Shown: piece by piece, positions 32,414-55,732 of the stretch | How the letters are laid out: each line of letters opens with the position of its first letter | Numbering within the stretch: position 1 is the stretch's first letter | Source of the DNA: a virus | Lineage: Duplodnaviria; Caudoviricetes | Reading direction: 5' to 3' (one strand) | DNA: 55,906 nt | IMG/VR virus record: IMGVR_UViG_3300033067_001303 | Coordinates: 1 to 55,906 of that record | The notes under the pieces: generated by a model | Seen by the model: only the letters and a program-made list of their open reading frames with translations | Told to the model about the DNA's origin: nothing | Database searches by the model: none | Made by a program: the position numbers and the translations under genes

Positions 32414-32897
32414 TAATTAATTCACTTAATAATTTAGGTTTATAATCTATAACTTCAGCAGATACGTTAATATAACATTTATCTGGTAAAGTATTCTCAT
32501 GTACATGACCATGTATATTAATATTAAATCTATATTCTAATTCACAAGGATGAATTGGTGCATGACTTAATATAATGTTACCAAATTCTTTATGTTTTAA
32601 ATATTTCATTGCTGCAACATTATTAACATGTTTTAATAATTCTGGTACATGCTGAGGTTCATCATGATTACCTAGTATTACTTTTTTAATACCATTTAAT
32701 TCATTTAACCAATAATATTGTGAAGCTTTTTCCATAGTAATGTCACCTAATATATAAGTGACATCTTTTTTACTAACTACAGAATTCCATTCTTTCACAA
32801 TATGTTTATTCATTTCTTCTTCGTCTTTAAATCCACGTTTAATAGCCATATTTCTATGACCAAAATGTGGATCACTGTAGTAACGAACGACACTAAT
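32400..32897 (-). CDS. Calcineurin-like phosphoesterase; N-terminus extends upstream of the called ATG, apparent ATT start
   Basis: In-frame (I)SVVRYYSDPHFGHRN supplies the DxH motif; then LGD, GNHD, SHAP, HGHVH. Confidence 0.8.
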   Translation of the reverse strand: MSVVRYYSDPHFGHRNMAIKRGFKDEEEMNKHIVKEWNSVVSKKDVTYILGDITMEKASQYYWLNELNGIKKVILGNHDEPQHVPELLKHVNNVAAMKYLKHKEFGNIILSHAPIHPCELEYRFNINIHGHVHENTLPDKCYINVSAEVIDYKPKLLSELINVEN

Positions 32898-33462
32898 GAT
32901 TTCTAAGTTTTAAATTATTCATAATCTTTTCTATTTTTAAAATAAATTCATTTTGTTTTAAATCCATTTTCATTTTATTACAAGTTGTACAACATGATAC
33001 ACAATTTTCTATAGAATATCCTAAATCACTATCAATTCTATCTATACCATTAATTAATATAATTTCTGAATTAAGATACTTTCTATTTTTAAACCTAAGA
33101 GAAGGTTTAGGTTCGTCTCCACAATAATAACAATTTTGATATATTAATGTTTTAAATTGTTCTAGTGATAAATTATTAGAAATGTTCTTTTTAGAATCTT
33201 TACATCTTATAATAATATTATGGTTGTATAATTGTTCAACTTGTGTTACAATTCTTTCTTTGTTAAATTCTCTATTTTGAAAAGAACAATTTTTGCAAGA
33301 TTTTGTACTATTGTCTTTAAGTTTTGATAAAACTACCTTTTTTAATATTTTACCACAATCACATTTACAATCTACCACTTTTCTAGTAGTGTAACCAGAT
33401 TTAATTGAATATGGTTCTGAAATTAATGTTAAATTATTATATTTTATTTTTAAATCTATCAT
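32893..33462 (-). CDS. Free-standing HNH-type homing endonuclease
   Basis: CKCDCG, CYYCG, GIDRIDSDLGYSIENCVSCCTTCNKMK; ATG at 33462 lies downstream of its promoter. Confidence 0.85.
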   Translation of the reverse strand: MIDLKIKYNNLTLISEPYSIKSGYTTRKVVDCKCDCGKILKKVVLSKLKDNSTKSCKNCSFQNREFNKERIVTQVEQLYNHNIIIRCKDSKKNISNNLSLEQFKTLIYQNCYYCGDEPKPSLRFKNRKYLNSEIILINGIDRIDSDLGYSIENCVSCCTTCNKMKMDLKQNEFILKIEKIMNNLKLRNH

Positions 33463-33486
33463 AATTTTGTATATATTTTGTATATA

Positions 33487-33518
33487 CAAATATACAAAAT
33501 AAAATCGACAATTCCTAA
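33487..33518 (-). promoter_or_regulatory. Promoter TTAGGAAT-N16-TATATTTG of HNH gene
   Basis: One of four near-identical elements upstream of endonuclease genes. Confidence 0.75.
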
Positions 33519-37444: not shown

Positions 37445-37813
37445 TTAACCGTGTTCCATATCAACATGATCTTCAAATATAAAAACATGATATAATGGAT
37501 ATGGTTTTTGAATAAAATCGATTCCATCATTTTTACCATCATCTTCAATCTCAATCATTTCATTTAATATAAAATCATTTTTATCTCTAATATATTCTTT
37601 TGGAAATAAATCTCCAAAAACACCACAAAAATGATCATATCTTTCACAATAATCTTTTTTACAATCTAAATATAAATTTAATATTCTAAAATATTCATTT
37701 CTGTCTGTAGTAATGATATAATCATTATGTTTAGATTTAAAATAAATATCATTTCCTATAATACCTATAATTTTATCTTCATGCGGATTTAAACTAATAT
37801 TTCCTTCTTTCAT
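37445..37813 (-). CDS. Hypothetical protein
   Basis: 122 aa; TAATG coupling to upstream HNH gene. Confidence 0.6.
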   Translation of the reverse strand: MKEGNISLNPHEDKIIGIIGNDIYFKSKHNDYIITTDRNEYFRILNLYLDCKKDYCERYDHFCGVFGDLFPKEYIRDKNDFILNEMIEIEDDGKNDGIDFIQKPYPLYHVFIFEDHVDMEHG

Positions 37814-38319
37814 TATTTATTATGTATTTCTTTTAAAATAGGACTTAATTTCATAAAATTTTCATATGAATATATATCAGATTTTATTCTATTACAATTC
37901 CAACAACAAGGTACTACATTTTCAAACGTATAACCCAAACTATTATCTTTTCTATCTAATTGATAAGCTCTTGAAACATAATTTGAATTCTCATCTCGTG
38001 TATAAGGATTAAAAATTAAAGTTTTATCACAATAGTGACATTTTGAATCTTTTATAATTTCTATAAATTCATCATAGTTAATTGTAACTTCATTTTTATT
38101 TCGTTTATTACAAGTGTGAATTAGTTCATTTAATATATGTTCATAAGGTCTTTTCTTTTGTGTACATTTTCTACATTTACCAGAATGTGTTTTTAATTGT
38201 GATTGTTGACTTTTTATATCATTACCACAATCAATACATTCAAAAGTAAATGTTTTATATGTACTACCTGATTTAGATTTTTTAATATCTATAGATTTTG
38301 CATTATTTATATCTAACAT
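37813..38319 (-). CDS. Free-standing HNH-type homing endonuclease
   Basis: CIDCG, CHYCD, LDRKDNSLGYTFENVVPCCWNCNRIK; ATG at 38319. Confidence 0.85.
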   Translation of the reverse strand: MLDINNAKSIDIKKSKSGSTYKTFTFECIDCGNDIKSQQSQLKTHSGKCRKCTQKKRPYEHILNELIHTCNKRNKNEVTINYDEFIEIIKDSKCHYCDKTLIFNPYTRDENSNYVSRAYQLDRKDNSLGYTFENVVPCCWNCNRIKSDIYSYENFMKLSPILKEIHNK

Positions 38320-38348
38320 AATTTTATATATTTTATATATTTTATATA

Positions 38349-38380
38349 CAAACATACGAAAAATTTATGAGAATTCCTAA
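38349..38380 (-). promoter_or_regulatory. Promoter TTAGGAAT-N16-TATGTTTG of HNH gene
   Basis: Matches the shared consensus. Confidence 0.75.
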
Positions 38381-41215: not shown

Positions 41216-42230
41216 TTACTTTTATAAAATCATCGTTTAAATTAAGATTTCCTTTTTTTTCGTAAATTTCTTTACTATAATTATATTTTTTGTTTTTCCA
41301 ATGATAATAAATATTATCTAAATTTTCATCTAGTCCTTTATATTTATAACCACTAGTTGTTGTGAAACCATTTAAAGCACTTTTAATCCATTTATCTGTC
41401 ATTCTATATACTAAAGGATAACTTTCTGTTTTTCCTACATATATGAATTTAAAAGGCATTAAAACATAATCACTAAAATTATATTTTTCAGCTAAAATAT
41501 TAAAAGCTTTTTGATATATTAAAGCTTGAAAATAATAACGATATTTTATAAAACTTTCCATAAATTTATCATTCTTACCTTCACCTGTTTTAATATCTTC
41601 AAAATAAACACATTTATTTTTTCTATCAATAGTCATTTTATCAATAAATCCTTTAATGAGAAATCCTTTATAATAATATTGGAATTCTACTTGATAATGA
41701 TTTTCTAACTCATTGTAAAATAAATCTTTACTAAATTCATGTGTTAATAAAATATCAGCTGAATTTTCAGCCATTTTTAATTGTCCTGTGTTAACAATAA
41801 TTTTAGAGTTTCCTTCAAATTTAATTTTTAAATAATCCCAAAAACTCGGAATATCAAAATTAGCTATTTTAGTTTCTTCTTTATATTTACTCCAAAATGA
41901 ATTGTTATTAACAATATTTAAAACTTCTTCTTTTGTTGGAACTTCTGTATAATTATTTAAAATTATATCTACAAGTAATCCTAATGTTGCTGTTGGTTTT
42001 TCAATATTTAATAATACATAATTTTTATCAAAATCATTTGTAGATAATAATTTATCTAACATTAAAGTTTCTACTAACGAACCGTGTTTTACACCTTCAT
42101 TATCTACAAATGTTTGTCTTATTAATGATATTGGACCATTACGATCAAAATCAGAAATTTTACTATAACTTAATCTTAAATCAATTATTTCTTCATTGTC
42201 CAACAGATTGTTTAATTTGTTCTCCTTCAT
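41208..42230 (-). CDS. PD-(D/E)xK exonuclease (RecE/exonuclease VIII-like)
   Basis: LSYS, GSLV, KGFIDKM...DIKT, YYFQALIY. Confidence 0.8.
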   Translation of the reverse strand: MKENKLNNLLDNEEIIDLRLSYSKISDFDRNGPISLIRQTFVDNEGVKHGSLVETLMLDKLLSTNDFDKNYVLLNIEKPTATLGLLVDIILNNYTEVPTKEEVLNIVNNNSFWSKYKEETKIANFDIPSFWDYLKIKFEGNSKIIVNTGQLKMAENSADILLTHEFSKDLFYNELENHYQVEFQYYYKGFLIKGFIDKMTIDRKNKCVYFEDIKTGEGKNDKFMESFIKYRYYFQALIYQKAFNILAEKYNFSDYVLMPFKFIYVGKTESYPLVYRMTDKWIKSALNGFTTTSGYKYKGLDENLDNIYYHWKNKKYNYSKEIYEKKGNLNLNDDFIKVND

Positions 42231-42471
42231 CTTCTTCTACATACAAATTAAAAATCTCATCTTCAATTTGTTTAAGACCATAAAATTCTTCATATAATAC
42301 TGTTTTATCATATTCAGAACTTGATTCAATTTTTAATTCTAATTCATCAATTAAATCATTAATGTATAAACGAGCTCTGTTTAGTTCATTTTGATTTAAC
42401 AAATTAATTAATTTATTGTAATCTTTATTACTTAAACAAAACGAAGCTAAATCTTTAATTTTTTTATTCAT
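42193..42471 (-). CDS. Hypothetical protein
   Basis: 92 aa acidic helical ORF. Confidence 0.55.
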   Translation of the reverse strand: MNKKIKDLASFCLSNKDYNKLINLLNQNELNRARLYINDLIDELELKIESSSEYDKTVLYEEFYGLKQIEDEIFNLYVEEDEGEQIKQSVGQ

Positions 42472-42473
42472 CT

Positions 42474-42917
42474 TTATAATTTTATATAGACACCAGGATT
42501 TTCCTTGTCTATTGTATAATACTGTTCATTCATTTTAAAAGCATATGGAATAAAATAATCCATATTATCATCTTCAATAATTCCATGTGCAACAAGTAAA
42601 TCTGCTATAATTTGATTAGCATTATTAAAATCAAATTTATGTTTACTTTTTCTAACAAAATGAAAACCTATTTCAAAAGGAGGTTCTTTTCCCTCCAAAA
42701 CATTGTTAAATTTTTCTCTTAAATTTTCAATAAGATTAGGTTTTGTTTTATATCCTACAACTTCTTTACGAGAAGCAGAATATCTTTGAATACCTAAATC
42801 AGATAAATAATTTTTAACTGTTTTGGAAGGAAATATTCCTCTTGATGTTTTAATTTTACTATTTTTTAAACTTGGAGTATTAAAAGGAATGAATATTAAT
42901 TCATCTGTATTTACCAT
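42474..42917 (-). CDS. RusA-like Holliday junction resolvase
   Basis: PSLKN, DFNN...DLL...IIEDDN, C-terminal PGVYI. Confidence 0.7.
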   Translation of the reverse strand: MVNTDELIFIPFNTPSLKNSKIKTSRGIFPSKTVKNYLSDLGIQRYSASRKEVVGYKTKPNLIENLREKFNNVLEGKEPPFEIGFHFVRKSKHKFDFNNANQIIADLLVAHGIIEDDNMDYFIPYAFKMNEQYYTIDKENPGVYIKL

Positions 42918-44743
42918 GGTAAACCACTTTCTGATTTTTGAATTTTACGTGTTTGATTATCTGATACTTTTTTATAAGTTAATGTTTTTTCATCATAAAT
43001 ATTTTCAAAAAAAGATTTTTCATAATCATTTCTTTTTGCGTCTGCTTCTTTTTTAAGTGTTTCAAAATCTATAGTCAATTCTTCACTTAAAGTACTATTT
43101 GGTTTTAATTTTGAAGCTTCTTTTTGTATTCCAATATTATTACTATAATATGAATAATCTACTTTTAAAGGAGCTAGTTTAGCTGAAGCTAAACTTTCTA
43201 ATCCTTCTAATCCTTGATATTTAGCAAAAATATTTTTAGTTTTAGAACTATTCGATTGTTTTGTATCAAATTCACGAACGCAATTAAAATCTGATTCTTT
43301 AAAATAAATATCACCTTTTCTATTTTTATCTTCTACAAATTTCTTACGATCGTTAATGTAATTGATAATATTGATATAAAAACCAAAATTTATATTATTT
43401 TGTTCAGAATATTCACTAATAATATCTGTTAAATTATATTTTTCATTTTGTTGTAAAATTCTTTCAAAATTTAATTTTGTAAAATTTACTAAAATACTAT
43501 TAATAAACATAAAAAACATGATTTTATTAATATCATATGTTGGTGTATGTATTCTAAATTCAATAGTTTTTTTATTACCAAATAATAAAGGTACAAAATT
43601 GTGAATATGATATCTTGAATGAATATTCCATTTTTGTTGACCTGTTGGGTCTTTAGGGTGATGACTTACTTGAGACAAATCGCCTCTATCACCATAACTA
43701 GATAAAGAATGACCTTCAGATAATTCTGTAAAAATAACATTAAAGTTTTTAATTAAATTATCTTTTGTAATTACAGGATCTAATTTACTTAAAATATCAT
43801 AAGTGTTAAATGGTGCAGAATAATTTTTATTTTTATATCTAAAATTGTATTTTTTATACAAATTAAACATACTAAAAATTTCATCTTGTAATGCAAGAGT
43901 TAATTTAAAAAATGCTGTAATAAATTCAGGTATTCTTGGTATATTTCCAATATGTAAATGCATTGAACACGTATCATTATAATCAGTACGATATTTTAAT
44001 TCTTTAACACTTTCAATAACGTTACAAATTCCTTTAACACCACTTAAAGGAATTGTAACATATTCTAACCCTGAAATACTACCATCTCTTAAAGGAATTA
44101 ATCCTAAACGATTGTGAATATTTTTAGGTATTTGACCAGCAACAGTTTCAAATTCTAAACCAAAACTTAAATCTTGAATTAATTTATTTATACTTTCTTC
44201 ATTATTTAAAGTAAATGAAGGTGTATAATATTTTTCATAATTCATTATATTTTGTTCAAGAATATCTTTAGAATCGTAAGGTAATGATGTTTTATATTCA
44301 CTAGTAGGTGGAGATTTTTTTATAAAATCGTAAGCCTTCATTCTTGAAATATGATAAAAATTACCATCACTTAGTTTTTCTCTAAAACTATAATTCTTTT
44401 CAATAATTAATTTATTTAAAGCATAAATTCTATAACCGTCTTCCATTTCAACAATTATTGAATTTATATCTTTTTTAAAGTAACCTTTATTTAAATTATT
44501 ATCAATAATACCAAATGTTAAATCTTTACTAAACGAATATTCGTTTGAAGAATAATCCCACACAATTTGTGTAGTATCTATACGATAATAACTTCCATTA
44601 TCCATTAAATAACAATCACCTGAATCTTTAATTTTTTTATCTCCAATTTTATAAAAACCTGAGTCATATTTTCTAGTTTTGGAAATAGGTAGTGTTTCAT
44701 TATTTATAGTTACTACAAATTTTTCTTTTGTATTCTTTGACAT
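42911..44743 (-). CDS. Putative amidoligase (glutamine synthetase-like COOH-NH2 ligase, Amidoligase_2 type)
   Basis: FGLEFET, RDGSI, LEYVT, CSMHLHIG, TIEFR. Confidence 0.85.
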   Translation of the reverse strand: MSKNTKEKFVVTINNETLPISKTRKYDSGFYKIGDKKIKDSGDCYLMDNGSYYRIDTTQIVWDYSSNEYSFSKDLTFGIIDNNLNKGYFKKDINSIIVEMEDGYRIYALNKLIIEKNYSFREKLSDGNFYHISRMKAYDFIKKSPPTSEYKTSLPYDSKDILEQNIMNYEKYYTPSFTLNNEESINKLIQDLSFGLEFETVAGQIPKNIHNRLGLIPLRDGSISGLEYVTIPLSGVKGICNVIESVKELKYRTDYNDTCSMHLHIGNIPRIPEFITAFFKLTLALQDEIFSMFNLYKKYNFRYKNKNYSAPFNTYDILSKLDPVITKDNLIKNFNVIFTELSEGHSLSSYGDRGDLSQVSHHPKDPTGQQKWNIHSRYHIHNFVPLLFGNKKTIEFRIHTPTYDINKIMFFMFINSILVNFTKLNFERILQQNEKYNLTDIISEYSEQNNINFGFYINIINYINDRKKFVEDKNRKGDIYFKESDFNCVREFDTKQSNSSKTKNIFAKYQGLEGLESLASAKLAPLKVDYSYYSNNIGIQKEASKLKPNSTLSEELTIDFETLKKEADAKRNDYEKSFFENIYDEKTLTYKKVSDNQTRKIQKSESGLPW

Positions 44744-44747
44744 TTTT

Positions 44748-46802
44748 TTAATTTATTAATGTTAACATGTAATCTTTCATAGCTTTAAAATCTTGAATTT
44801 TTTTATTAACTTCAACATCGTCTGTAGTATTTAATTTTTCTAAATTATCAACAATATCTTCTAAACCAAAAATAATTTCATTAGAAGATTCTTGAATTAA
44901 TTCATTGATTACTTCTAAATCGTTTTCTGATTCAATTTGTGAATAATCTTCATTTTTAGTATAATCAATACCATCTTCTTTTAAATAAGCTTCAAAATTA
45001 TTAATAGGTTCCTTTGTTTTATTAGTTAATTTAATTAAATCTTCTAATGAATTAACAGATTTAAAATCTTCAGAACCAAATAAAACTTTTTCAAAATGAT
45101 TATTTACTTTAATTGATGTTAAATTACCTTCTTTAATAGAATATGTTCTATCACTACCTAATGTAAAAAAACTATTTATTTGTTCAACTTTTTTACCTTT
45201 TAATGTAATAGATTGATTATCATCAGATCTTGAATCAATTGCTAAATCAATAATAGGATGTGTACTAATTTCAGATAACTCAATATAACTTATATTTAAA
45301 CCTTTTTTAATATGACTATCACGATATCTTGAATATGTTGTAGAATAATCCATTTTTGTTAAAACTTTAACACCTTGAATAAAATAATACATACTATATT
45401 CAACATTTGTTAAATGTTTAAAAGGAATAAATGTTTTTACAGTTTCATTAGTTAAATCTAAATCTTTAGTATCATGAACAAAACCGTTTTTAATAAAAGG
45501 AATACCAATTAATCTATTTAAAGTTTTTTTAGCTTCTTCAAAATTATCTTCACCTATTTTATAAAAACCATAATGATTAACCCATGTATAAATACCAGTA
45601 ATTGTATGACCATTTTGCCAATGTCTAAATTTATTAAAATAAACTCTACCTAAATAATCATTTTGATTTTTAGATAAACATTCTTTATAAATATTTAATG
45701 GTACAATATTATCTGTATCTTTTAATTTAATTTTACAATTTAAATTAGGATTAATATAAACTTTATTTGCAGCAGGTAACTGAATTATTTTTGAATTTTT
45801 ATTTCTTTCAACATAAGGTTCATTATCAAAAAGTGTTGTATCACCATAAGCATTAGCAATATTGTTATAATAACTATTTGATTTTTTAGTATAAGACATA
45901 ACAATTTCTTTTTGAAATTGATCTTTTCTTGAAACTAATATTTTTTCAGCATTTTCTACATCACCATCTGTAATTTTATATACTGTATTTTGACTAAATG
46001 TAAATAAATTAACATTTGCAATACCTCCAATTGTTTCTAATGATTCTTGAATTGAAGAAATATATAAACTATTTTTAGTTTCTTTATAATAAAATAAAGG
46101 TCTTTCTTCTTCTATATCATAATTGGTATAATCATACCATTTTGAAGCACCTTTCCATACATAAATAACATTAGGTTCATTTGTGTTTGTAAACACTAAA
46201 GCAGCGGCACCGTTATATTGACTTAAAACTTTAAAATTTTTAGTTTTATAAATAATTTCTAATAATATTTCAGAATCAATTTTTTGTCTAATTGTTTCAT
46301 AAAAACCATTAGGATTATGATCAGATTGAACTTTAACTGTTTCTGTAGTATCAATTTTAAATGTAGAAGCTAAATCTTTATGATTATATAATGTACCATT
46401 ATGACAACCTACAAATTCATAATTACCTTCAGAATTATTACCAAAACCAAATGGATGTGCATTTCTTTCATTTACAATATTTCCAACACTTGCTTGACGT
46501 GTATGACCAATTACTACAGGATATTTAAGAGGTTTAATTTCTCTATTTACAATAAATTTAGAATATAATTTTTCTGTATTTAACCCGTAATAAACTTCAC
46601 CGTCAAATGACACACCACATGAATCTTTTCCTCTATCAATATTAAAAATTCCAAGTTTGTCAAATTTATCTTTATTAAATTTTTTAGGGTCTTTTCCAGA
46701 CCAAGCGAATATTCCGCAATATAATTTATTATATTTTGGTTTTACAATATATAATTGTAAATAATGTACAAATAATAAAATTAATATTATTTTTATTTCC
46801 AT
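44748..46802 (-). CDS. Class II (Ntn) glutamine amidotransferase with hydrophobic leader and long C-terminal extension
   Basis: CGIF, RGKDSCG, IGHTRQAS, NAHPF, HNGT, DSE, ERPL. Confidence 0.88.
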   Translation of the reverse strand: MEIKIILILLFVHYLQLYIVKPKYNKLYCGIFAWSGKDPKKFNKDKFDKLGIFNIDRGKDSCGVSFDGEVYYGLNTEKLYSKFIVNREIKPLKYPVVIGHTRQASVGNIVNERNAHPFGFGNNSEGNYEFVGCHNGTLYNHKDLASTFKIDTTETVKVQSDHNPNGFYETIRQKIDSEILLEIIYKTKNFKVLSQYNGAAALVFTNTNEPNVIYVWKGASKWYDYTNYDIEEERPLFYYKETKNSLYISSIQESLETIGGIANVNLFTFSQNTVYKITDGDVENAEKILVSRKDQFQKEIVMSYTKKSNSYYNNIANAYGDTTLFDNEPYVERNKNSKIIQLPAANKVYINPNLNCKIKLKDTDNIVPLNIYKECLSKNQNDYLGRVYFNKFRHWQNGHTITGIYTWVNHYGFYKIGEDNFEEAKKTLNRLIGIPFIKNGFVHDTKDLDLTNETVKTFIPFKHLTNVEYSMYYFIQGVKVLTKMDYSTTYSRYRDSHIKKGLNISYIELSEISTHPIIDLAIDSRSDDNQSITLKGKKVEQINSFFTLGSDRTYSIKEGNLTSIKVNNHFEKVLFGSEDFKSVNSLEDLIKLTNKTKEPINNFEAYLKEDGIDYTKNEDYSQIESENDLEVINELIQESSNEIIFGLEDIVDNLEKLNTTDDVEVNKKIQDFKAMKDYMLTLIN

Positions 46803-46808
46803 ATTTTT

Positions 46809-47324
46809 TTAATTTTTAAATATTTTTAATGTATTTTCAGAAAAAGTTATCAATTGATCAATTGATGCACAATTTTTCATAGTATTTGCTAATTTTGAAA
46901 TGATCCATACATTTCCTTTAATGTAACCTTTAGAATTATCAATTCTATCAATACTTACAGAATTCCAATTTTTTCTACCGTTTCCTACAGAATAATCTAA
47001 TTTTATGTTCAATAAAGGACAAAATTCTACTATTTCTAAATCTTCAATTGTTATTGAAAATTCTAAATTTCTATTTGTAAATTTAATTTTAGATTTAATA
47101 TTATGAATTTTTCTTTCTAAATAATTAGAATTAATATATTCTATTTTTTTAACTTTGTATTCTTCTGATTTGTAATAATTTTTAACTTTTTCTGATTTAC
47201 GATATTTTAAATCATATTCTTTTTTACAAAGTTTACATAAATTACTATAACCATCTTTATTACCTTTAAATACGTGAAATTCTGTTATTTCTTTTTCACA
47301 TTTACATTTAGTACATTCTTTCAT
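46809..47324 (-). CDS. Free-standing HNH-type homing endonuclease
   Basis: CTKC/CKLC zinc ribbon, CPLL, SIDRIDNSKGYIKGNVWIISKLANTMK. Confidence 0.85.
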   Translation of the reverse strand: MKECTKCKCEKEITEFHVFKGNKDGYSNLCKLCKKEYDLKYRKSEKVKNYYKSEEYKVKKIEYINSNYLERKIHNIKSKIKFTNRNLEFSITIEDLEIVEFCPLLNIKLDYSVGNGRKNWNSVSIDRIDNSKGYIKGNVWIISKLANTMKNCASIDQLITFSENTLKIFKN

Positions 47325-47341
47325 ATTTTATATCTTTTTTA

Positions 47342-47373
47342 CAAAGATACAAAAAATATGTGAGAATTCCTAA
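47342..47373 (-). promoter_or_regulatory. Promoter TTAGGAAT-N16-TATCTTTG of HNH gene
   Basis: Matches the shared consensus. Confidence 0.75.
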
Positions 47374-47389
47374 TTATTTACACATTATT

Positions 47390-48190
47390 TTATACTGTTT
47401 TTAATATATTAGTATTAATTTTTTCAATTGTTTGTTTTGCTAATTCTTTATTATTTGTATTAATAGCTTTTACAGTATCTTCTCCATATAATTTAATATA
47501 TTCGTCAGCTTTACCGTCTAATACAATAGTAACAGCGTTAACTGTTTGTTCAAATACCCATTCAATTAATTCATTTGAATGAATCCAAAAATTAGATAAT
47601 GCTCTACATTCTACACCAAAATCTTTAAATCTAAAAGAACCTGCTTTACCATAAAGTTCACGTCTTCTTTCATCTGTATCAATTAATAATGCAGGTAATG
47701 TTACCATAATGTCAAACATTTTTACAATGTTTTCTTGAATTTCATCAGTTCTATATTCTTTATCTATTCCAATATGAACATGACCACCAACACATCTTAA
47801 ATTTGTGTTAGTTTTTGGAGAAGGATTGATATCTTGTAACCATACATTAAAGTCAGGTTCGCAACCAAATGTTTGAGCATTTTCCGTTTGTAAATAAGCA
47901 GGATTAATTTCTCCTGACGCTTTAGTTGATAATTTACAACCATTTGCTTCAGCAATAACTGCTAAATGTTCTTTTACATAATTAATATTTTCAACATATT
48001 CTTTTTTAGTAGAACAAGGTGGAATATTAAATTCAAAAGCAATATTATCAATTTGAATACAATGACCTTTATCTGTAATTGGATGAGGTTCATATTTTGT
48101 ACCTGGAATTAATCCTTCTGCAGAAATAATTTCTGTTTCATTTTCAATAAAAATTTCTGGATCTGTACCTAAACTAATATTATATTTCAT
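47390..48190 (-). CDS. phiEco32-like COOH-NH2 ligase type 2
   Basis: LGTDPEIF, DNIAFEFN, FGCEPDFN, GGHVHIG, RRELYGKAG, GVECRALSNFW. Confidence 0.88.
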   Translation of the reverse strand: MKYNISLGTDPEIFIENETEIISAEGLIPGTKYEPHPITDKGHCIQIDNIAFEFNIPPCSTKKEYVENINYVKEHLAVIAEANGCKLSTKASGEINPAYLQTENAQTFGCEPDFNVWLQDINPSPKTNTNLRCVGGHVHIGIDKEYRTDEIQENIVKMFDIMVTLPALLIDTDERRRELYGKAGSFRFKDFGVECRALSNFWIHSNELIEWVFEQTVNAVTIVLDGKADEYIKLYGEDTVKAINTNNKELAKQTIEKINTNILKTV

Positions 48191-48225
48191 TTTTAATAAT
48201 TTTTTAATTTTTAATAATTTTTTAA
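48190..48225. repeat. Perfect 18-bp tandem duplication (TTTTTAATAATTTTTTAA x2)
   Basis: Read directly; forms the whole intergenic spacer/translation initiation region. Confidence 0.7.
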
Positions 48226-48914
48226 TTTTCTTTTAATACTCTTGTTCTAATAAGATTTATTATGTATTTAAGTGATGTATCTGAACTATCAGAAATCCAT
48301 TCAGGATGAGATTGAATACATAATGAATTATATTCATTATAAAACACAATTTCTGGTTCTAAAAAGTTTTCAGGTAATTCAATATTTTCATTTTGACCAT
48401 TTAAATAAACATCACTTTTAAAATGTAATGAATATCCTAATAATGAATATTGACTTGTGTTTAAATTAAAAGGATACATCATTTGATGATGATCTGAAGG
48501 GATGTTTAAAACTTTACCTCCATAATAAATAGCATCTTTAGTAGAATTATGACCTGTTACATGTTGTATTAATTTACCACCAGCCATTACTGTAAGAAAT
48601 TGAGCACCTCTACAAATACCAAGTTTAGGTATTTGATAATACATTTTATGAAATAAATTATGTTCAACATCATCACGATGTTTATTATTTTTAGTAAATT
48701 TACCTTTAGTTTCACCATAAAACGATGGAGATACGTCTTCACCACCTGTAAATAAAATTAAATTTATAACGTTTGGTAAAGATTTATCTTCTTCTTTAAC
48801 AATACCTACAACATTATATTCAGGAAATGTTTTTTTTAAAAATTCTAAATACTCTTGTTCTACAACACCTCTTGCAAATAATACATTAAAAGTTGGTTTT
48901 TTATTATCTTCCAT
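48222..48914 (-). CDS. Class I glutamine amidotransferase / peptidase C26
   Basis: TGGEDV, GICRGAQ, HHQ, QSHPE (Cys-His-Glu triad). Confidence 0.88.
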   Translation of the reverse strand: MEDNKKPTFNVLFARGVVEQEYLEFLKKTFPEYNVVGIVKEEDKSLPNVINLILFTGGEDVSPSFYGETKGKFTKNNKHRDDVEHNLFHKMYYQIPKLGICRGAQFLTVMAGGKLIQHVTGHNSTKDAIYYGGKVLNIPSDHHQMMYPFNLNTSQYSLLGYSLHFKSDVYLNGQNENIELPENFLEPEIVFYNEYNSLCIQSHPEWISDSSDTSLKYIINLIRTRVLKEN

Positions 48915-49770
48915 TTTGTTTTGATTTTCTAATTATAATTTTAGGAATTTCATCAATATATTTTTGTGCACAAACAGATACTTCACCTGTTCCATTATCC
49001 ATAGAACTTGCACTATTACATTCTAATAAGATATATTCTTGATAAGGTCTTGAATTACCATCTTTATCTCTTGGAGTTTGAACTCTAACATCAAATGATA
49101 ATAAATCTGCACCTACAGCTTTTAACGCTTTTACACAGTCTGAAACAATGTCATTCCATGAATTAGGTTTGTGAAAGTTTTCATTAGTTTCAAGAAACCA
49201 TACACAAATATCATCATGACGACGCCATTTTTGATCTTCAGGTACATCTTGTTTTAAAGCTTTTCTACAAGTATAAAAACAACCGTCTTCTGTTACATGC
49301 AATCTAAATTCATGACCAAAGTTCATAAATTTTTCAAATATATAATTACTAAGTGTTTTACCTTGCATCCAAGATTCTAATTCTTCTTGAGATTTAATTA
49401 AAGTATTACCTTTACCTTTAGAACCATAATGAGCTTTAGCTACAATAGGATATCTTTCACGAGCCCAGTCATTTAATGCACCATCTGTCCACATTTCTGC
49501 AGTTTTAACACCAGCTTCTGTGAACTTTTGTTTCATTAAAAATTTATTAGCTGAAATTTTAATTGCATCAACAGTATTAATTTCAATTCTTTTACCACCT
49601 TTAGCAACACTATCTTCAACTTCAGTAGATGATCCAAATCTAATAACTGAACGATAAGGTAATGCTGCTATTTTTTTATGTTTAAGTCTTAAAATATCAT
49701 GACTTGGATGACGACTTAAAATCATTGGTCTAAATAAAGTGTATTTCTTTTTTTTAACTGTTGGAGTCAT
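48904..49770 (-). CDS. ATP-grasp ligase
   Basis: NK, YPIVAK, GSKGKG, EK, EFRLHV, FDV, LECNSA. Confidence 0.85.
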   Translation of the reverse strand: MTPTVKKKKYTLFRPMILSRHPSHDILRLKHKKIAALPYRSVIRFGSSTEVEDSVAKGGKRIEINTVDAIKISANKFLMKQKFTEAGVKTAEMWTDGALNDWARERYPIVAKAHYGSKGKGNTLIKSQEELESWMQGKTLSNYIFEKFMNFGHEFRLHVTEDGCFYTCRKALKQDVPEDQKWRRHDDICVWFLETNENFHKPNSWNDIVSDCVKALKAVGADLLSFDVRVQTPRDKDGNSRPYQEYILLECNSASSMDNGTGEVSVCAQKYIDEIPKIIIRKSKQNGR

Positions 49771-49771
49771 A

Positions 49772-50419
49772 TTATTCTAAGTTTAAAAGTTGTTTAATAA
49801 TTACTTCTGAAATACCATCATTAATTTCTTCAGGATGATATTGTACACCATATACATTTTTAGCAAATCTTGCAATTTCAATATTACCATCTACTTTTTC
49901 TCTTGCTAAAACATTAAAAGGATTAGGTAAAGAAAAACAACCTTGATGATGTAATGAATTTACTTCATATTTTGGAGGCATTGTTGATTTGTTAATAATG
50001 TCAAACATTGGTTGTTCAAAAGCTAATGTATCAACTTTATCATGTCTTCCTTTAGAAGAATAATTAAAGGGATAGTGTTGTTCTAATTTACCACCAAATT
50101 TAACACATAATTGTTGAAATCCTAAACAAATACCAAATATTGGAGTATTGTTTGCTAAATATTTATCTAAGTTATTATCAAAGAAATATTGTTTCATAAC
50201 ATCTGTATTAGATGTATGAAATCCTGGAACTTCACCAAAAGATTGAGGAGTAATATCTGCACCACCTGGTAATACTAATAAATCTAAATCTTCAACAATT
50301 CCTTTTTGTGGTGATAAAATATGAACAATTCCAAAATTACTTAACCAATCAATATATGGTACAGTTACACCAAAACTATTATCTCCTGTTTTCCAACCTA
50401 CTATTCCAATTTTTTTCAT
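49772..50419 (-). CDS. Class I glutamine amidotransferase / peptidase C26 (gamma-glutamyl hydrolase-like)
   Basis: PGGADI, GICLGFQ, VNSLHHQ, VQYHPE. Confidence 0.9.
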   Translation of the reverse strand: MKKIGIVGWKTGDNSFGVTVPYIDWLSNFGIVHILSPQKGIVEDLDLLVLPGGADITPQSFGEVPGFHTSNTDVMKQYFFDNNLDKYLANNTPIFGICLGFQQLCVKFGGKLEQHYPFNYSSKGRHDKVDTLAFEQPMFDIINKSTMPPKYEVNSLHHQGCFSLPNPFNVLAREKVDGNIEIARFAKNVYGVQYHPEEINDGISEVIIKQLLNLE

Positions 50420-50443
50420 TTTATATTTAATTTTAATTTATTT

Positions 50444-51001
50444 TTATTTTTTAGCTAATAAAGAAAATAATGTGTTAGCTACACTTTTTGTTTCATAATA
50501 ATCTACCCAATTACCATTTTCTACTACAGTTCCTTTTTTTGAAGCATCTATAATACTATTATCCAAAATAAACATATATGCTTTACCAAAAGGAGTATCT
50601 ACTCTTTCAAGTTTATACAATTCATAATTATTTGTATAATCTAAAATATTACCTTCAAGATTATTATGCCATTCTAAAGATTGAAAAATAGTTCTATCAA
50701 CATTGTATAGTTCAATTAATACAGAAGATGAACCTTTTTTATCTAAACAAGCAAAACCTTCAATATCATATAATGTAAATTCTGGTAATGTTTCATAAAC
50801 TGCAATAGGTGAATCTTCATCAAGTTGTTCATGATTATTCATACCTTTTCTTAAAAAACCATAAACACCTACTAATATTTTTTCAGGTTCTTTGTTTTTA
50901 TCAAATCTCATATTCTTTTTATTTTGATTTTTAATCTCTTTTTCACGTTGTTTATCTTTTTTAATTTGTTTTTTAAAAGAACGTTGTTTATTTCTACTCA
51001 T
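50444..51001 (-). CDS. Gamma-glutamylcyclotransferase (AIG2-like) with basic N-terminal extension
   Basis: VGVYGFLRKGMNNH, ELYNV, LEG, C-terminal GNW. Confidence 0.8.
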   Translation of the reverse strand: MSRNKQRSFKKQIKKDKQREKEIKNQNKKNMRFDKNKEPEKILVGVYGFLRKGMNNHEQLDEDSPIAVYETLPEFTLYDIEGFACLDKKGSSSVLIELYNVDRTIFQSLEWHNNLEGNILDYTNNYELYKLERVDTPFGKAYMFILDNSIIDASKKGTVVENGNWVDYYETKSVANTLFSLLAKK

Positions 51002-51003
51002 AT

Positions 51004-52044
51004 CTAAAAAGGCATTAAAATTTCACGTTCAAATATTTCAACAGCTTTTTTAACACCTACCTTTTCAACTAAATCTGAAAAATCTTTAGATTCATGTTTA
51101 CTGTCAATACATCTTCCAATAAAACCTGTTTCTTGTTCTAATCTTTTAGAAAATATTTGACCCCAGTTTTCTTCTTTATCATAATCATTATCATAAAATA
51201 TTAAACATAGTCCAAATCTTTCTTCCAGTTCATCAATTACTTGTTTTTTAGGTAATACATTTTCACATTGTAATGCTACTGCATTATAACCTGTATTTTC
51301 TTTAATACACATTACATCTTTTAAAGATTTAGTAATAACTAATGTGCCACCATGATCAGAAACAGGTAATTGACTCCAACCTTGCCATATTGAATCATTA
51401 TGAGAATTTAACCATTTGTAATTTTTACTAAATGGTTGATAAATTTTATAAGTTTCTTCACCATCTTTATGTTCAATAAAAACATAAGAATGTTTATCTG
51501 CTTTAATTGGTTTATCATTTACAACAATATATGATATTGGTTCTACATTATATTCTATTAATGTTTTTAATGAAATATTATATTTTTGCCAATATTGCAT
51601 ATCGTGAAATTCCCAATTTCTTTTAATTTTACCAAGTTTAAACTTATACATTGTTTTAGACAAAGCATGTTCTCTTGAATGATTTGTTGTAAAATCACCT
51701 TCTGCCTTAGGAATACCTGTTTTTTTAATTAACCAGTCATTTTCCATATTAAAATCAATTGCAATTTTAGATAATGCTTCATAATGATTTAATTCAAACA
51801 TTACTTCTACAAACTTAATACAATCACCTTTTAATCTTAATGTAAAATCGTGAAAACATATTTCACCACCATCACCAACAAAGAAACCAAATGAAGGATT
51901 ACTTTCATTTCTAAATGGAGAATGAATGTTTTTACCTATTATTATATCTTCATTTAAGATATATCTTTTATATATATCTAAATCAGAAACATATTTTAAA
52001 AGTTTCTTTTTAGTAATATATTCTTTATTTAAATTAATAGTCAT
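51004..52044 (-). CDS. DNA primase (TOPRIM, crAss-like)
   Basis: SPFRxExxPSF, ITKSLKDVM, YDND, KDFSD. Confidence 0.85.
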   Translation of the reverse strand: MTINLNKEYITKKKLLKYVSDLDIYKRYILNEDIIIGKNIHSPFRNESNPSFGFFVGDGGEICFHDFTLRLKGDCIKFVEVMFELNHYEALSKIAIDFNMENDWLIKKTGIPKAEGDFTTNHSREHALSKTMYKFKLGKIKRNWEFHDMQYWQKYNISLKTLIEYNVEPISYIVVNDKPIKADKHSYVFIEHKDGEETYKIYQPFSKNYKWLNSHNDSIWQGWSQLPVSDHGGTLVITKSLKDVMCIKENTGYNAVALQCENVLPKKQVIDELEERFGLCLIFYDNDYDKEENWGQIFSKRLEQETGFIGRCIDSKHESKDFSDLVEKVGVKKAVEIFEREILMPF

Positions 52045-52046
52045 TT

Positions 52047-52181
52047 TTAATATTGTATAAATGTCATTTTACCGTTAAATTCAAATTCAATACAAGGTAT
52101 TGTTTCTAAAAAATCTAAACAAGGTTTAGAATGTCTAACTTCTTCAATTTCTTTATTTTCTTCAATTTCTAATTCTGTCAT
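52047..52181 (-). CDS. Small acidic hypothetical protein (44 aa), not in ORF track
   Basis: MTELEIEENKEIEEVRHSKPCLDFLETIPCIEFEFNGKMTFIQY; A-rich leader; ends 2 nt before primase ATG. Confidence 0.5.
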   Translation of the reverse strand: MTELEIEENKEIEEVRHSKPCLDFLETIPCIEFEFNGKMTFIQY

Positions 52182-52207
52182 TTTTTATTTAATTTTAGTT
52201 AACATTA

Positions 52208-52279
52208 GTGCCAGAACAAGATTCGAACTTGTATCTACCCATTAAAAGTGGACGGCTTTACCAATTAAGCTATCTGACT
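52208..52279 (-). tRNA. tRNA-Lys(TTT)
   Basis: D arm GCTT/AAGC with TGG loop; anticodon stem GTCCA/TGGGT with loop CTTTTAA; T arm ACAAG-TTCGAAT-CTTGT; acceptor GTCAGA/TCTGGC; no encoded CCA. Confidence 0.82.
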
Positions 52280-52280
52280 A

Positions 52281-52306
52281 TAAAAAGAGGGTATTTCTAC
52301 CCTCTT
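52281..52306 (-). terminator. Rho-independent terminator after the ssb-like gene
   Basis: AAGAGGGTA-GAAA-TACCCTCTT then T-run. Confidence 0.8.
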
Positions 52307-52313
52307 ATATTTA

Positions 52314-52892
52314 TTACCAATTTGCAGTAGTACTTGTACCAGCAGAATTATCTGTTGATGGTGCATCTGCAACAAGTTTTTCCATCATATCATTACTAGA
52401 TGGTTTTAATCTTGTCATATTTGCAGGAGTACTTGCATTTTCCACAAAGTTAAAGTAACGAGTACTTAAATATTGTGATGGTTTTGCAGTAGTTCCATAA
52501 GTTACGTAAACATTAACTAATGTACTAGCTGCATTATCATTAATAATTTTAAATAATGAATTTAATGCTTCTTTTGAAGTTGTCACTTCAGGAAATGTAA
52601 AATCAGCAGGTACTACAGCTTTTGCTGCAGATAATACTCTACTAACTAACCACGTTTCCATGTCACGATTTCTCTTCTCGTCAGCCATTTCATTATCTTT
52701 ATGATAATAGAATCCTGTATTAATTTGTCCACCAGTTGTATCTGTGAAAATTAATTTAAAATCTGGACTATTATCTGGATCAGCAGCTGTTTTCTTAGTT
52801 ACTGACATTTTTACATTTTCAACTTTTCCTGTGTTACCGTTATTAAATACTGTAGCACCACCACCAAAACTTGCATCATTTAAATTGAACAT
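52314..52892 (-). CDS. Probable single-stranded DNA-binding protein
   Basis: 192 aa between AAA ATPase and primase; low-complexity tail ending in W; codon usage suggests high expression; call rests mostly on synteny. Confidence 0.5.
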   Translation of the reverse strand: MFNLNDASFGGGATVFNNGNTGKVENVKMSVTKKTAADPDNSPDFKLIFTDTTGGQINTGFYYHKDNEMADEKRNRDMETWLVSRVLSAAKAVVPADFTFPEVTTSKEALNSLFKIINDNAASTLVNVYVTYGTTAKPSQYLSTRYFNFVENASTPANMTRLKPSSNDMMEKLVADAPSTDNSAGTSTTANW

Positions 52893-53868: not shown

Positions 53869-54700
53869 TTAATTTTTTCTAATATGTTGTATTATTTGAT
53901 GTACTTGTGACATTTTTGAACTTTCATTTGGGAGAGGTAATTCTTTAAAATAATTAACTGCTCCATCGAAATATAATGGACATGTTGTTCCTCCACCACC
54001 ATCTCTACCACCTAAGATTTCTAAAAATCTTATATTGTCTTTAAAAAATCTAACATCATAACCCATATAATCTGGTATTTCATGTCTAAATGGACTAAAT
54101 AAACCTAATATAACATCAGCATCACGCTGAGTAAGTTTATTGTCTCCTAGACCATCTAATGAAGGTTTAAGTCTGTTATGTTTTTTATTTTCAACACTTT
54201 CTTGTGATTGAGCTTGCTGTTGAATAACAACTGGAATATATCCAAATCTATTTCTTAATTTAATTAAATAATCTGATGATAATACGGTAATACTTTCATG
54301 TAAATTTAATTGAACGCCATTTCTTTTTTCAGGACTTATAAGTCCAATATGGTCAATCATTACAATAACGTATTCTTCAGGATCATTAGCTTCGTAATAA
54401 TCTTCAACTTGTATTATTTCACCATCAATATTTAAATCTCGATAATGTATTTTACCATTAGCTAACGCATATTTTTTAACAATGTTATAAATACCAGTAG
54501 GGTGACGTACATCATCTATAAATTCAACAATTTCTTCTATTTTATTAAAATATTTTTCATATTTTTTAATTATATTTAAAATATGATCAGGTAAAATCTT
54601 ATCTGCTTTAGTACTTTTTAAATCTGTAGGACTTATTCTAATACCTTCTTTAACATATAATATGTTTGCAAAAGCAGATAACATTTTCTGTTCTTTAGTC
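53869..54700 (-). CDS. dnaB: DnaB-like replicative helicase, exon 2
   Basis: MIDHIGL (Walker B), VIQQQ, LTQRDADVILGL; exon starts with the G completing a split ATG. Confidence 0.85.
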
Positions 54701-54994
54701 CATTTTGTTATCATAAGAGCTCTTTATCTCTTATTTCTATATGTTACCATACAGTTCAGACTATATCTTCAGTACCGTGTACCGCTGGGATTTCGTGTTA
54801 TGATTATATTCTGTAGAAGTGGGATTTTCACCCACATTTCACCTTACCTTTTAAAGTTCTAGTTTGTGCTATTTTTTACACTATTCTACAGTTTCACATA
54901 TTAGTCGTTCGACCTTCTATAACCATTTAAATTATAGCTTGGTACGGGATTGTCCACTTCTGGAGTTTCCCCGTTTAACCCAGTTAAGAGACAA

Positions 54995-55732
54995 CTACAA
55001 TTTATATTTCATAGATTCACAAATATATGGATAAATTAAATTTTTAAAAGTTTCTTTTGAATTATTTTTTATATAAATTTTGTTATTGTATTGTAAAGAA
55101 CTTTCAATATTATATTTATTTAATAAAAATAATATAAAATCATTACATTCTTTAACAGAAAAACTACATGTAGACAGAATATATCCTGAATTTTTAGATT
55201 TAGAACCGTCATCCATATAATGTATTGCCATTGCTAAAGGTGTATAATATTCTTCAAGTAAATTAAACGGAATTACTTTAATATTATTTTTATAAAAAGA
55301 ATCATAAATAAAATTCAATTCTTCATTAACACCTAAATACATAGTTATGTCACTATATAACTTTCCAGTTTTTTTATTTGGAATATTTCTATAATTTTCT
55401 TTTACTCGTACAATATCATTAAAAAATGAACTTTTATATAATAAATAATCTTTTTGTTTTAAAGAATGAGAACAACTAAAATTTGGACCTGTAGAATATT
55501 TTTCTTTACGCATGTAACCGTCTCCTAAAAGACATCCTATTAATAATTCTAAACGATCTTTTGATAGTTTTATACCTTCTTTTTTTCTTAAACATTTTCT
55601 TTCTATTTTATGTATTTTAACTCTTTGGTAATAAATTACTTGAGGTGATACATTAAATAATTTTCCAATTTCAGAATCTTTTAATCCTTTATTTACAAAT
55701 TCTTGTAAATCTTTTTTATCAATTTTAAACAT
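54995..55732 (-). CDS. Intron-encoded LAGLIDADG homing endonuclease with N-terminal HTH
   Basis: LIGCLLGDG and AIHYMDDG; N-terminal DSEIGKLFNVSPQVI helix-turn-helix. Confidence 0.9.
   Translation of the reverse strand: MFKIDKKDLQEFVNKGLKDSEIGKLFNVSPQVIYYQRVKIHKIERKCLRKKEGIKLSKDRLELLIGCLLGDGYMRKEKYSTGPNFSCSHSLKQKDYLLYKSSFFNDIVRVKENYRNIPNKKTGKLYSDITMYLGVNEELNFIYDSFYKNNIKVIPFNLLEEYYTPLAMAIHYMDDGSKSKNSGYILSTCSFSVKECNDFILFLLNKYNIESSLQYNNKIYIKNNSKETFKNLIYPYICESMKYKL

Follow-up and report, generated by a model that had tools for sequence, protein, structure and literature searches.

A crAss-like member of the phiEco32-type phage amidoligase neighbourhood, with a four-gene core and lineage-variable accessory genes

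Here, we describe a cluster of seven enzyme genes between positions 42911 and 51001 of a 55,906-base IMG/VR virus record (IMGVR_UViG_3300033067_001303), the whole of which we call the window. The cluster is a crAss-like member of a known, computationally predicted phage enzyme system. It encodes three distinct ATP-dependent carboxylate-amine ligases (an ATP-grasp ligase, a COOH-NH2 ligase type 2 and a glutamine-synthetase-like ligase of the Amidoligase_2 family), three enzymes of glutamine-gamma-amide-cleaving families (one class II and two class I glutamine amidotransferases (GATases), the latter of family C26 and called C26a and C26b below) and a GGACT/AIG2-like gamma-glutamyl(amine) cyclotransferase (GGACT). 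The genes for the ATP-grasp ligase, the COOH-NH2 ligase, the class II GATase and Amidoligase_2 form an invariant core, and those for GGACT and the C26 enzymes are accessory. In our best reading, to which we give a probability of about 0.5, the cluster would be a cytoplasmic, ATP- and glutamine-using pathway that builds and trims a gamma-glutamyl-type amide compound. To the predicted system we add the split into core and accessory genes, the adjacency of a C26 gene and the COOH-NH2 ligase gene, an extension in front of the class II nucleophile and the insertion of a homing endonuclease gene.

The core emerges from 21 sampled loci compared with iterated local profiles. They comprise 11 IMG/VR relatives, recovered by a search with the COOH-NH2 ligase at 50-77% identity, and ten further lineages: cr108_1, phi14:2, 7-11, PA11, Lbo-JY46, Alcaligenes phage QDWS535, Slicky01, Bjorn, phiEco32 and PaP3. 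The four core genes are present at 21/21 loci and missing from none. GGACT occurs at 18/21 and is missing from the fetched stretches of cr108_1, 7-11 and PA11; a C26 GATase occurs at 15/21, with 7-11, Slicky01, Bjorn, phiEco32, phi14:2 and PaP3 lacking it. Because of these counts we regard the unit as a four-gene core with lineage-variable accessories, and not as the fixed seven-gene pathway proposed in an earlier note on this DNA. Co-conservation in relatives, the lack of which would have counted against that note, holds for the four core genes throughout and for all seven genes in the 11 IMG/VR relatives, but the accessories vary in the other lineages. All 11 of these relatives keep primase, GGACT, C26a, ATP-grasp ligase, C26b, COOH-NH2 ligase, class II GATase, Amidoligase_2 and RusA genes. 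Gene content and gene order are repeated in every one of them, which puts the cluster far beyond chance; the seven enzyme genes are real and occupy the coordinates given below. GGACT of one relative (L004) was detected by profile search alone. A second C26 copy is located upstream of the primase gene in two relatives (L009, L011) and after the ATP-grasp gene in another (L010).

A search of genome contigs added 12 loci, all on contigs of metagenome-assembled genomes (MAGs), with no isolate bacterial genome among them. The core four are complete on nine of the 12; the other three contigs are incomplete (1.8 kb, 4 kb and one ending inside the class II GATase gene). C26 is found on 10/12 of these contigs and GGACT on 2/12. 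The accessory C26 gene keeps a fixed position: going upstream from the COOH-NH2 ligase gene, it is the first cluster gene reached in all crAss-like loci (12/12) and MAG contigs (10/10) that have C26, with 0.5-1 kb inserted between the two genes in four of these loci. This position marks C26 and the COOH-NH2 ligase as a candidate pair. A predicted structure of the complex of COOH-NH2 ligase and C26b scored 0.00 and carries no weight for or against such pairing. Among public phages, the COOH-NH2 ligase, the most conserved gene of the cluster, matched 315 of 50,697 records by tblastn (Pseudomonas 121, Escherichia 94, Vibrio 22, Aeromonas and others). As single queries, Amidoligase_2 and the class II GATase of the window matched five records, which represent phi14:2, cr108_1 and Lbo-JY46.

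Enzyme families were assigned with Pfam (gathering cut-offs), PHROGs, fold matches and conserved catalytic residues, and these bear out the seven identities that the earlier note had read from the sequence. The ATP-grasp ligase and Amidoligase_2 lie below the Pfam gathering score here, and their calls are based on PHROGs and profile links and, for Amidoligase_2, also on weak fold matches. Unless another count is given, each residue named below is conserved in 90% or more of the 21-31 sequences aligned; the roles of the catalytic residues are taken from the literature on the families. Degenerate active sites would have counted against the earlier note, but on alignment the active sites are intact. 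With their catalytic residues in place, all enzymes of the cluster are apparently functional, and their genes are passed on together as a block.

The genes are described here with coordinates on the minus strand, which they all share. The ATP-grasp carboxylate-amine ligase of the core (288 amino acids, 48904..49770) was assigned by phrog_2599 (E 3.7e-24) and reaches 23.1 bits with PF02222 against a cut-off of 27. K76, G119, G121, E154, R156, E250 and N252 are conserved, such that the lysine, the glycine loop and the E-x-N residues are all kept. PHROGs groups it with ribosomal protein S6 glutaminyl transferase, and its best PDB and NCBIfam matches are PurK (3.9e-8 and 1e-7), although these span the generic ATP-binding core only (residues 66-160) and fall far below cut-offs. 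PurK-type and RimK-type models fit it about equally; RimK is a ligase that modifies proteins, and the cut-off of the RimK family model TIGR00768 is missed (23.7 bits versus 143.4). The COOH-NH2 ligase type 2, also a core enzyme (266 amino acids, 47390..48190), passes PF14395 (E 3e-8, 33.7 bits versus 25) and matches phrog_3815 at E 1.3e-78, with D10, E12, E53, H137, H139, R176, R187, E194 and R196 conserved. It matches the NCBIfam YbdK family weakly, below cut-off, and a profile search of the PDB returned chance-level matches only. Amidoligase_2, the third core ligase (610 amino acids, 42911..44743), matches phrog_2443 (E 8.5e-32) and scores 19 bits with PF12224 versus a cut-off of 22. It belongs to one local profile family (E 3.5e-205) with phiEco32 gp84 and cr108_1 gp034, which pass that cut-off with 34 and 27.8 bits, respectively. 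Conserved residues are E197, E199, D220, E227, H262, H264, E395 and R397; they follow an N-terminal domain (residues 1-180) seen in crAss-like relatives and the cyanophage Lbo-JY46, and the C-terminal tail is variable. A sequence-profile search of the PDB with Amidoligase_2 gave no match. Foldseek found nothing for its structure model at E 0.001 or better, the best matches (E 4.8e-3 and weaker) being glutamine synthetase, gamma-glutamylcysteine synthetase, YbdK and PafA.

The fourth core enzyme is a class II GATase with an N-terminal nucleophile (Ntn) fold (684 amino acids, 44748..46802; PF13522, E 3.4e-9). It consists of a hydrophobic extension (residues 1-28), a glutaminase domain (29-300), a conserved domain at about 370-570 and an acidic helical tail. 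The structure model has a mean predicted local distance difference test score (pLDDT) of 64, and most 10-residue blocks across 29-300 lie between 72 and 94. VIA-align places it on PurF (8w7d_A) with Z 24.2 and a root-mean-square deviation of 2.6 over 219 residues, from model residue 29, and on GlmS with Z 23.7, where the alignment likewise begins exactly at residue 29. EgtC is a weak NCBIfam match and a fold match at Z 21.3. Of 22 homologues, 21-22 retain Cys29, Arg102, the Asn135-Gly136 pair and Asp176. A profile search puts position 28 of the class II GATase profile on residue 1-2 of PurF and GFAT. In the window and in five of ten aligned relatives, 27-28 hydrophobic residues precede the nucleophile Cys29, and the proteins of the other five begin with M-C; the window gene has no start codon directly before Cys29. 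The extension, encoded by the first 28 codons (46719-46802, minus strand), may act as a propeptide or tether the protein to a membrane. Ntn-type catalysis would require its removal, and a self-cleaved propeptide may be the simplest reading, as the propeptide of Bacillus subtilis PurF cleaves itself. For the C-terminal part of the protein, Foldseek and VIA-align gave no fold, their matches covering only 29-300 and the terminal helices; the ESM Atlas held no usable match to the region around 370-570, and none of 31 relatives has a Pfam family there, as they carry only PF13522 or PF13537.

Both class I GATases belong to the accessory genes. C26a (215 amino acids, 49772..50419; PF07722, E 2.6e-26; PF00117, E 8.8e-16) keeps the triad Cys98-His195-Glu197 in at least 90% of 31 sequences. 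Among NCBIfam models it comes closest, at E of about 1e-14 and without reaching any cut-off, to those for TrpG-type glutaminases and for the N-terminal part of GuaA, and it looks like a glutaminase subunit. C26b (230 amino acids, 48222..48914; PF07722, E 1.1e-17) is encoded just upstream of the COOH-NH2 ligase gene. Its triad Cys101-His203-Glu205 is invariant in the C26b alignment and likewise kept in at least 90% of 31 sequences. The PDB sequence matches of C26b are Lin1909 (1.5e-14), 7d4r (5.7e-12), which we take to be SpuA, and PuuD (6e-9), and its NCBIfam matches, far below cut-offs, are gamma-glutamyl-CDP-amidate hydrolase (2.5e-6) and PuuD (1.2e-5). These weak hints suggest gamma-glutamyl-X hydrolases of the PuuD type as the closest characterised relatives. 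In four relatives (L003:8876-9979, L004:8954-9952, L006:8892-9977, L007:8937-9989), C26b is longer by 100-140 poorly conserved residues at the C-terminus, which C26b of the window does not have. The GGACT/AIG2-like enzyme, also accessory (185 amino acids, 50444..51001), was recognised by PF06094 (E 2.2e-9, 38.3 bits versus 22.8) and phrog_2520 (E 2.7e-12); its PDB sequence matches are weak (PH0828 at 0.037). Glu97, which corresponds to the conserved catalytic glutamate of the GGACT/AIG2 family, is shared by 90% or more of 21 homologues. One relative (L012) has two tandem GGACT paralogues (L012:4308-5341), and its C26a comes as two pieces that flank an HNH-like gene of opposite orientation. None of the seven cluster proteins matched any defence or candidate model of PADLOC-DB at E 0.01 or better. 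The possible roles named in the earlier note, superinfection exclusion, anti-defence and host takeover, are speculative.

The phiEco32-type amidoligase neighbourhood was reportedly predicted by Iyer, Abhiman, Burroughs and Aravind in 2009 (Mol Biosyst 5:1636). PF14395, Amidoligase_2, class II GATase and ATP-grasp genes stand in one co-oriented cluster in the window, and one local profile per family joins the window proteins to phiEco32 gp80, gp83, gp84 and gp86, which confirms the kinship already recognised in the earlier note; the Pfam entry PF14395 is itself named after phiEco32 ('Phage phiEco32-like COOH.NH2 ligase-type 2'). The two neighbourhoods have the four core families and GGACT in common, and both are phage-borne and adjoin a primase gene. 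Gene order differs, with GGACT-C26-ATP-grasp-C26-ligase-GATase II-Amidoligase_2 in the crAss type and ligase-x200-Amidoligase_2-GATase II-ATP-grasp-GGACT in phiEco32. The window further has two class I C26 GATases, whereas phiEco32, PaP3, Bjorn and 7-11 have none, its Amidoligase_2 has the extra 180-residue N-terminal domain compared with the phiEco32 type, and it lacks the gp85-like family of about 200 amino acids found in non-crAss phages. Closer to the window are Cellulophaga phage phi14:2 and cr108_1 (Crassvirales, Steigviridae, Asinivirinae), the only Crassvirales among the records directly matched by Amidoligase_2 and the class II GATase of the window (31-46% identity). Their core gene order is identical, and their clusters occupy the same place, between the primase gene and recombination and uracil-DNA glycosylase genes. 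However, cr108_1 lacks GGACT and C26a and has two paralogous genes instead, phi14:2 lacks both C26 genes, and neither has the HNH insert of the window.

Two better characterised types of system resemble the cluster in part. In the Puu/Pau pathways, which use polyamines by way of gamma-glutamylation, PuuA and PauA are glutamine-synthetase-like ligases, and PuuD and SpuA are C26 hydrolases. Like the Puu/Pau pathways, the window combines a glutamine-synthetase-like ATP-dependent ligase with a C26 enzyme, the best characterised matches of C26b being PuuD and 7d4r. Unlike them, it has no PuuB/PuuC-type oxidase or dehydrogenase, and GlnA-type ligases are replaced by ligases of the YbdK and Amidoligase_2 types. 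All scores are far below equivalog cut-offs. The likeness is one of logic only, and we do not count the cluster among these pathways. MurT/GatD pairs a ligase gene with a neighbouring class I GATase gene, which is also how the genes of C26b and the COOH-NH2 ligase and those of C26a and the ATP-grasp ligase are arranged; MurT is a Mur ligase, and the window ligases differ from it in fold. The earlier note's statement that no product has been demonstrated agrees with the literature, in which we found no experimental product, target or phenotype for the cluster enzymes.

It is intriguing to propose that the cluster enzymes act together on one small molecule. The ligases would form two or three amide bonds on a small, universally available substrate, for which an amine such as a polyamine or an amino-acid- or nucleotide-linked compound are candidates. 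The class II GATase would give ammonia to one ligase or take a gamma-glutamyl group off for it, and C26b and GGACT would trim gamma-glutamyl groups in dispensable accessory steps. Glutamine or glutamate would thereby supply nitrogen or a gamma-glutamyl group that can be taken off again, and glutamate could carry or protect the substrate in the way it does in the pathways of Puu/Pau, butirosin (BtrJ/BtrG) and ergothioneine (EgtA/EgtC). The cluster itself is a member of none of these. The more general part of this proposal, a short cytoplasmic small-molecule pathway fed by ATP and glutamine or glutamate, has in our estimate slightly less than an even chance. In favour of a cytoplasmic location, inspection of the cluster proteins without a signal-peptide or transmembrane predictor revealed no hydrophobic segment other than the one that precedes Cys29 in the class II GATase. 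A gamma-glutamyl tag that is written and erased, as supposed in the earlier note, would be compatible with GGACT and the PuuD-type relatives of C26b, but the GATases could equally be ammonia donors.

Several points weigh against a pathway that builds and trims a gamma-glutamyl compound. In the literature we found none of its members with a described substrate, product or phenotype, and an ammonia-donating glutaminase and a gamma-glutamyl-X hydrolase cannot be separated by sequence. C26a is nearer to ordinary glutaminase subunits (GuaA, TrpG), which favours the reading of ligase-glutaminase pairs as amidotransferases, discussed below. As the NCBIfam matches are far below cut-offs, no cluster enzyme is an equivalog of a known one. 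Gamma-glutamyl trimming is not essential to the core chemistry because GGACT and C26 are missing from several lineages. The ATP-grasp homologue of phage 7-11 passes the Pfam RimK domain cut-off (30 bits versus 21), no oxidase, dehydrogenase or other tailoring gene is present that would give a protect/deprotect scheme a purpose, and expression together with replication genes has been seen in relatives only.

A narrower version of the proposal concerns the four core enzymes. They might make one specific, undescribed amide-linked small molecule from glutamine or glutamate and a universal amine or acid, e.g., a gamma-glutamylated or amidated polyamine, needed during genome replication by hundreds of unrelated phages, among them crAss-like phages of Bacteroidota, phiEco32-, LUZ24- and PA11-like podoviruses and a cyanophage. 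We consider this version doubtful. A possible purpose of such a product, on which we can only speculate, would be to let the phage regulate the polyamine pool of the cell that it infects. One unconfirmed yeast two-hybrid match of LUZ24 gp9 to the host gamma-glutamylpolyamine synthetase PauA2 is no more than a lead in this direction. If true, the four-enzyme version would describe a conserved virus-made metabolite pathway and not a set of host-mimicking auxiliary genes. Should the product prove to be a metabolite or modification not described before, phage biology would gain a general feature; otherwise, the cluster is an ordinary instance of the predicted system. The cluster must pay its way, because phages with very different hosts keep some 8 kb for it. 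Cultured carriers exist in phiEco32, SU10, LUZ24, PaP3 and Cellulophaga phage phi14:2.

The proposal of an alternative hypothesis, in which each ligase and a glutaminase make up a two-component amidotransferase, is based on the gene order of the window, which pairs C26a with the ATP-grasp ligase, C26b with the COOH-NH2 ligase and the class II GATase with Amidoligase_2. Free carboxylates would be turned into carboxamides, for example in the peptidoglycan stem peptide (UDP-MurNAc-peptide, lipid II), and the envelope would thus be altered and superinfecting phages excluded. MurT/GatD and AsnB/LtsA are precedents for such enzymes, and the idea of cell-wall amidation is said to go back to an original suggestion by Iyer et al. 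in 2009. It is also quoted in a 2023 article (PMC10580990), which passes on the suggestion that the cluster genes alter the cell wall and keep out superinfecting phages and adds that their function still awaits exploration. The constant place of C26 before the COOH-NH2 ligase gene, the full set of glutaminase residues in all three GATases and the likeness of C26a to the GuaA and TrpG glutaminase subunits all speak for amidotransferases. Yet six of the 21 loci have no C26 GATase, and therefore at most one ligase can be glutamine-fed in those six phages. In addition, none of the ligases has a Mur-ligase fold, and no membrane segment was noticed besides the extension that must go to free Cys29. 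The envelopes of the hosts are also very different, even if the bin labels of the contigs binned with Saccharibacteria, Ktedonobacterales and an archaeon are unreliable. We therefore regard paired amidotransferases acting on the cell wall as unlikely.

Two further explanations were considered. In the first, the ligases would tag a protein of the host or the phage with amino acids or a short peptide, much as RimK polyglutamylates and PafA pupylates its targets, and GGACT and C26 would be the erasers. The PHROGs grouping of the ATP-grasp ligase with ribosomal protein S6 glutaminyl transferase, the RimK score of the 7-11 homologue and the presence of PafA among the weak fold matches of the Amidoligase_2 model would fit such tagging, as would the activity of GGACT enzymes on gamma-glutamyl-amines, e.g., gamma-glutamyl-lysine. 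However, the cluster contains no Pup-like open reading frame (ORF) of at least 60 amino acids, the RimK-family scores of the window ATP-grasp ligase are no better than its PurK-type scores, and three ligases with a class II GATase exceed the needs of known tagging systems. The accessible portion of the SU10 proteomics source reports no modified protein either, and we judge protein tagging to be quite unlikely. In the other explanation, the molecule synthesised or modified by the cluster would be a nucleotide, a cofactor linked to one or a base of DNA. This would account for the constant place of the cluster among replication and nucleotide-metabolism genes, where it abuts a primase or primase/helicase gene in many carriers. 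The PurK matches of the ATP-grasp ligase, the PurF-like class II domain, the weak match of C26b to gamma-glutamyl-CDP-amidate hydrolase and the phosphoribosyl pyrophosphate (PRPP) synthetase and nicotinamide phosphoribosyltransferase (NAMPT) genes near the cluster at three of 33 loci point the same way. But the PurK matches cover just the generic ATP-binding core, and position is weak evidence since early and middle regions hold most non-structural genes of phages. Genes for a phosphoribosyltransferase, a kinase or a glycosylase-type base exchange do not occur in the cluster, 30/33 loci have neither NAMPT nor PrsA, and we know of no DNA modification in the carriers phiEco32, LUZ24 and PaP3. 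A role in nucleotide or base chemistry is thus highly improbable.

The cluster is placed in a minus-strand, crAss-like replication module. The window is estimated to be 55% complete, has about 24% G+C and bears all its sizeable ORFs from 30.3 kb to the end on the minus strand. The module contains a DnaB-like helicase piece with a LAGLIDADG endonuclease gene, Sak4, primase, RusA, exonuclease, ribonucleotide reductase, helicase, phosphoesterase and thymidylate synthase genes, and the earlier note's placement of the cluster within it is borne out, with primase upstream and RusA and exonuclease downstream. The upstream flank is the DNA primase gene (51004..52044, minus strand; phrog_12622, E 5.3e-59), 2 nt from the GGACT gene, and the downstream flank is a gene for a RusA-like Holliday junction resolvase (42474..42917, minus strand; phrog_1682, E 3.7e-14) that overlaps the Amidoligase_2 gene by 7 nt. 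Eight co-oriented ORFs fill the 42911-51001 interval between these flanks. The run of enzyme genes had been called contiguous and co-oriented; co-orientation and span stand, but strict contiguity does not, for an HNH ORF at 46809-47324 had been missed. From the coordinates, the genes are spaced by gaps of 2, 24, 1, 31, 65, 6 and 4 nt and overlaps of 11 and 7 nt. A terminator-like hairpin (52306-52285, minus strand), whose 9-bp stem leads into a T-rich tract, lies between ORF 52314-52892 and the primase gene and is the sole convincing site of this kind in 42000-52600. Because of the tight spacing and this hairpin upstream of the primase gene, primase and cluster genes probably form one transcription unit. 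Sigma-70-like promoters were at chance level (93 found, 91.3 expected). No further minus-strand ORF of at least 60 amino acids is present within 42911-51001, hence no Pup-like tag-protein gene of that size, and no oxidase or dehydrogenase gene for a Puu/Pau-type step is among the eight ORFs or the flanking genes. At about 8 kb, the cluster takes roughly 8% of a genome near 100 kb. An adjoining primase or primase/helicase gene is found in crAss-like phages, phiEco32, PaP3, Bjorn, PA11, Slicky01 and Alcaligenes phage QDWS535.

Data on the timing of expression come from relatives. In SU10, a phiEco32-like phage, this region is reported to belong to the early genes, and ATP-grasp, GATase and YtfP-like proteins were detected by mass spectrometry. 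For PaP3, ORF22-56 are reported as middle genes with a peak 10-30 min after infection. These include the cluster ORFs 42-48 and the primase/helicase ORF40. From these relatives we infer that the module is expressed with the replication genes and before the late genes. Six metatranscriptome runs contained 0.06-0.16 of the words of the window, which is no evidence of expression.

The eighth ORF of the interval encodes a 171-residue homing endonuclease of the HNH/endonuclease VII type (46809..47324, minus strand; phrog_3322, E 7.3e-26; phrog_1035, E 1.3e-25) at the junction of the COOH-NH2 ligase and class II GATase genes. None of the 11 close relatives has an HNH gene at this junction, so we interpret it as a mobile insert that splits the cluster and stands outside the pathway. 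In the LUZ24-like phage UFV-P2, an HNH gene is located at the neighbouring amidoligase/GATase junction. The replication module of the window holds three HNH/endonuclease VII-type genes and a LAGLIDADG endonuclease gene that adjoins the DnaB-like helicase piece at 53869-54714. The mobile endonuclease sites are 46809-47324, 32893-33489, 37813-38355 and 54995-55732, all on the minus strand. To judge from these gene calls, the module appears heavily colonised by mobile endonucleases, and the DnaB-like helicase gene may be split. On one MAG-binned contig (L032), some 2.5 kb separate two pieces of the COOH-NH2 ligase gene (4175-4603 and 7100-7333), which may reflect an intron, an intein or a mobile insertion.

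Other genes accompany the core in some lineages. The gp85-like family of about 200 amino acids follows the COOH-NH2 ligase gene in 7/7 sampled non-crAss phages, the cyanophage Lbo-JY46 excepted (L019:9811-10428 and counterparts in L013, L014, L016, L017, L018 and L021), and is also found at L025, L029 and L030. It has no Pfam family. The idea that it is a hidden GATase or a detached N-terminal domain of Amidoligase_2 was rejected, as hhalign comparisons with the cluster families gave probabilities of at most 0.1. A fifth family shared by phiEco32, PaP3, 7-11 and cr108_1 upstream of the ligase was likewise discarded, with phmmer linking only cr108_1 gp029, gp030 and L023. The paralogous gp029 and gp030 lie between the ATP-grasp and C26 genes of cr108_1 (L001:6451-8352), roughly at the position of the ATP-grasp/C26b junction of the window; they have homologues on one MAG contig (L023:7682-9353) and are without a Pfam family. 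Small ORFs common to Lbo-JY46, L002 and L010 have no Pfam family either. Genes for PRPP synthetase and nicotinamide/nicotinate phosphoribosyltransferase within a few kb of the cluster are those of Salmonella phage 7-11 (L013:5-2568), Leptolyngbya phage Lbo-JY46 (L015:2742-6951) and Pseudoalteromonas phage Slicky01 (L017:967-3272).

At least half of the sampled words of the window are contained in 14 sequencing runs from studies P1-P9, labelled as aquatic, freshwater, riverine, biofilm or wastewater metagenome except for three that are unlabelled. With the window, a crAss-like lineage of freshwater or wastewater joins the carriers of the cluster.

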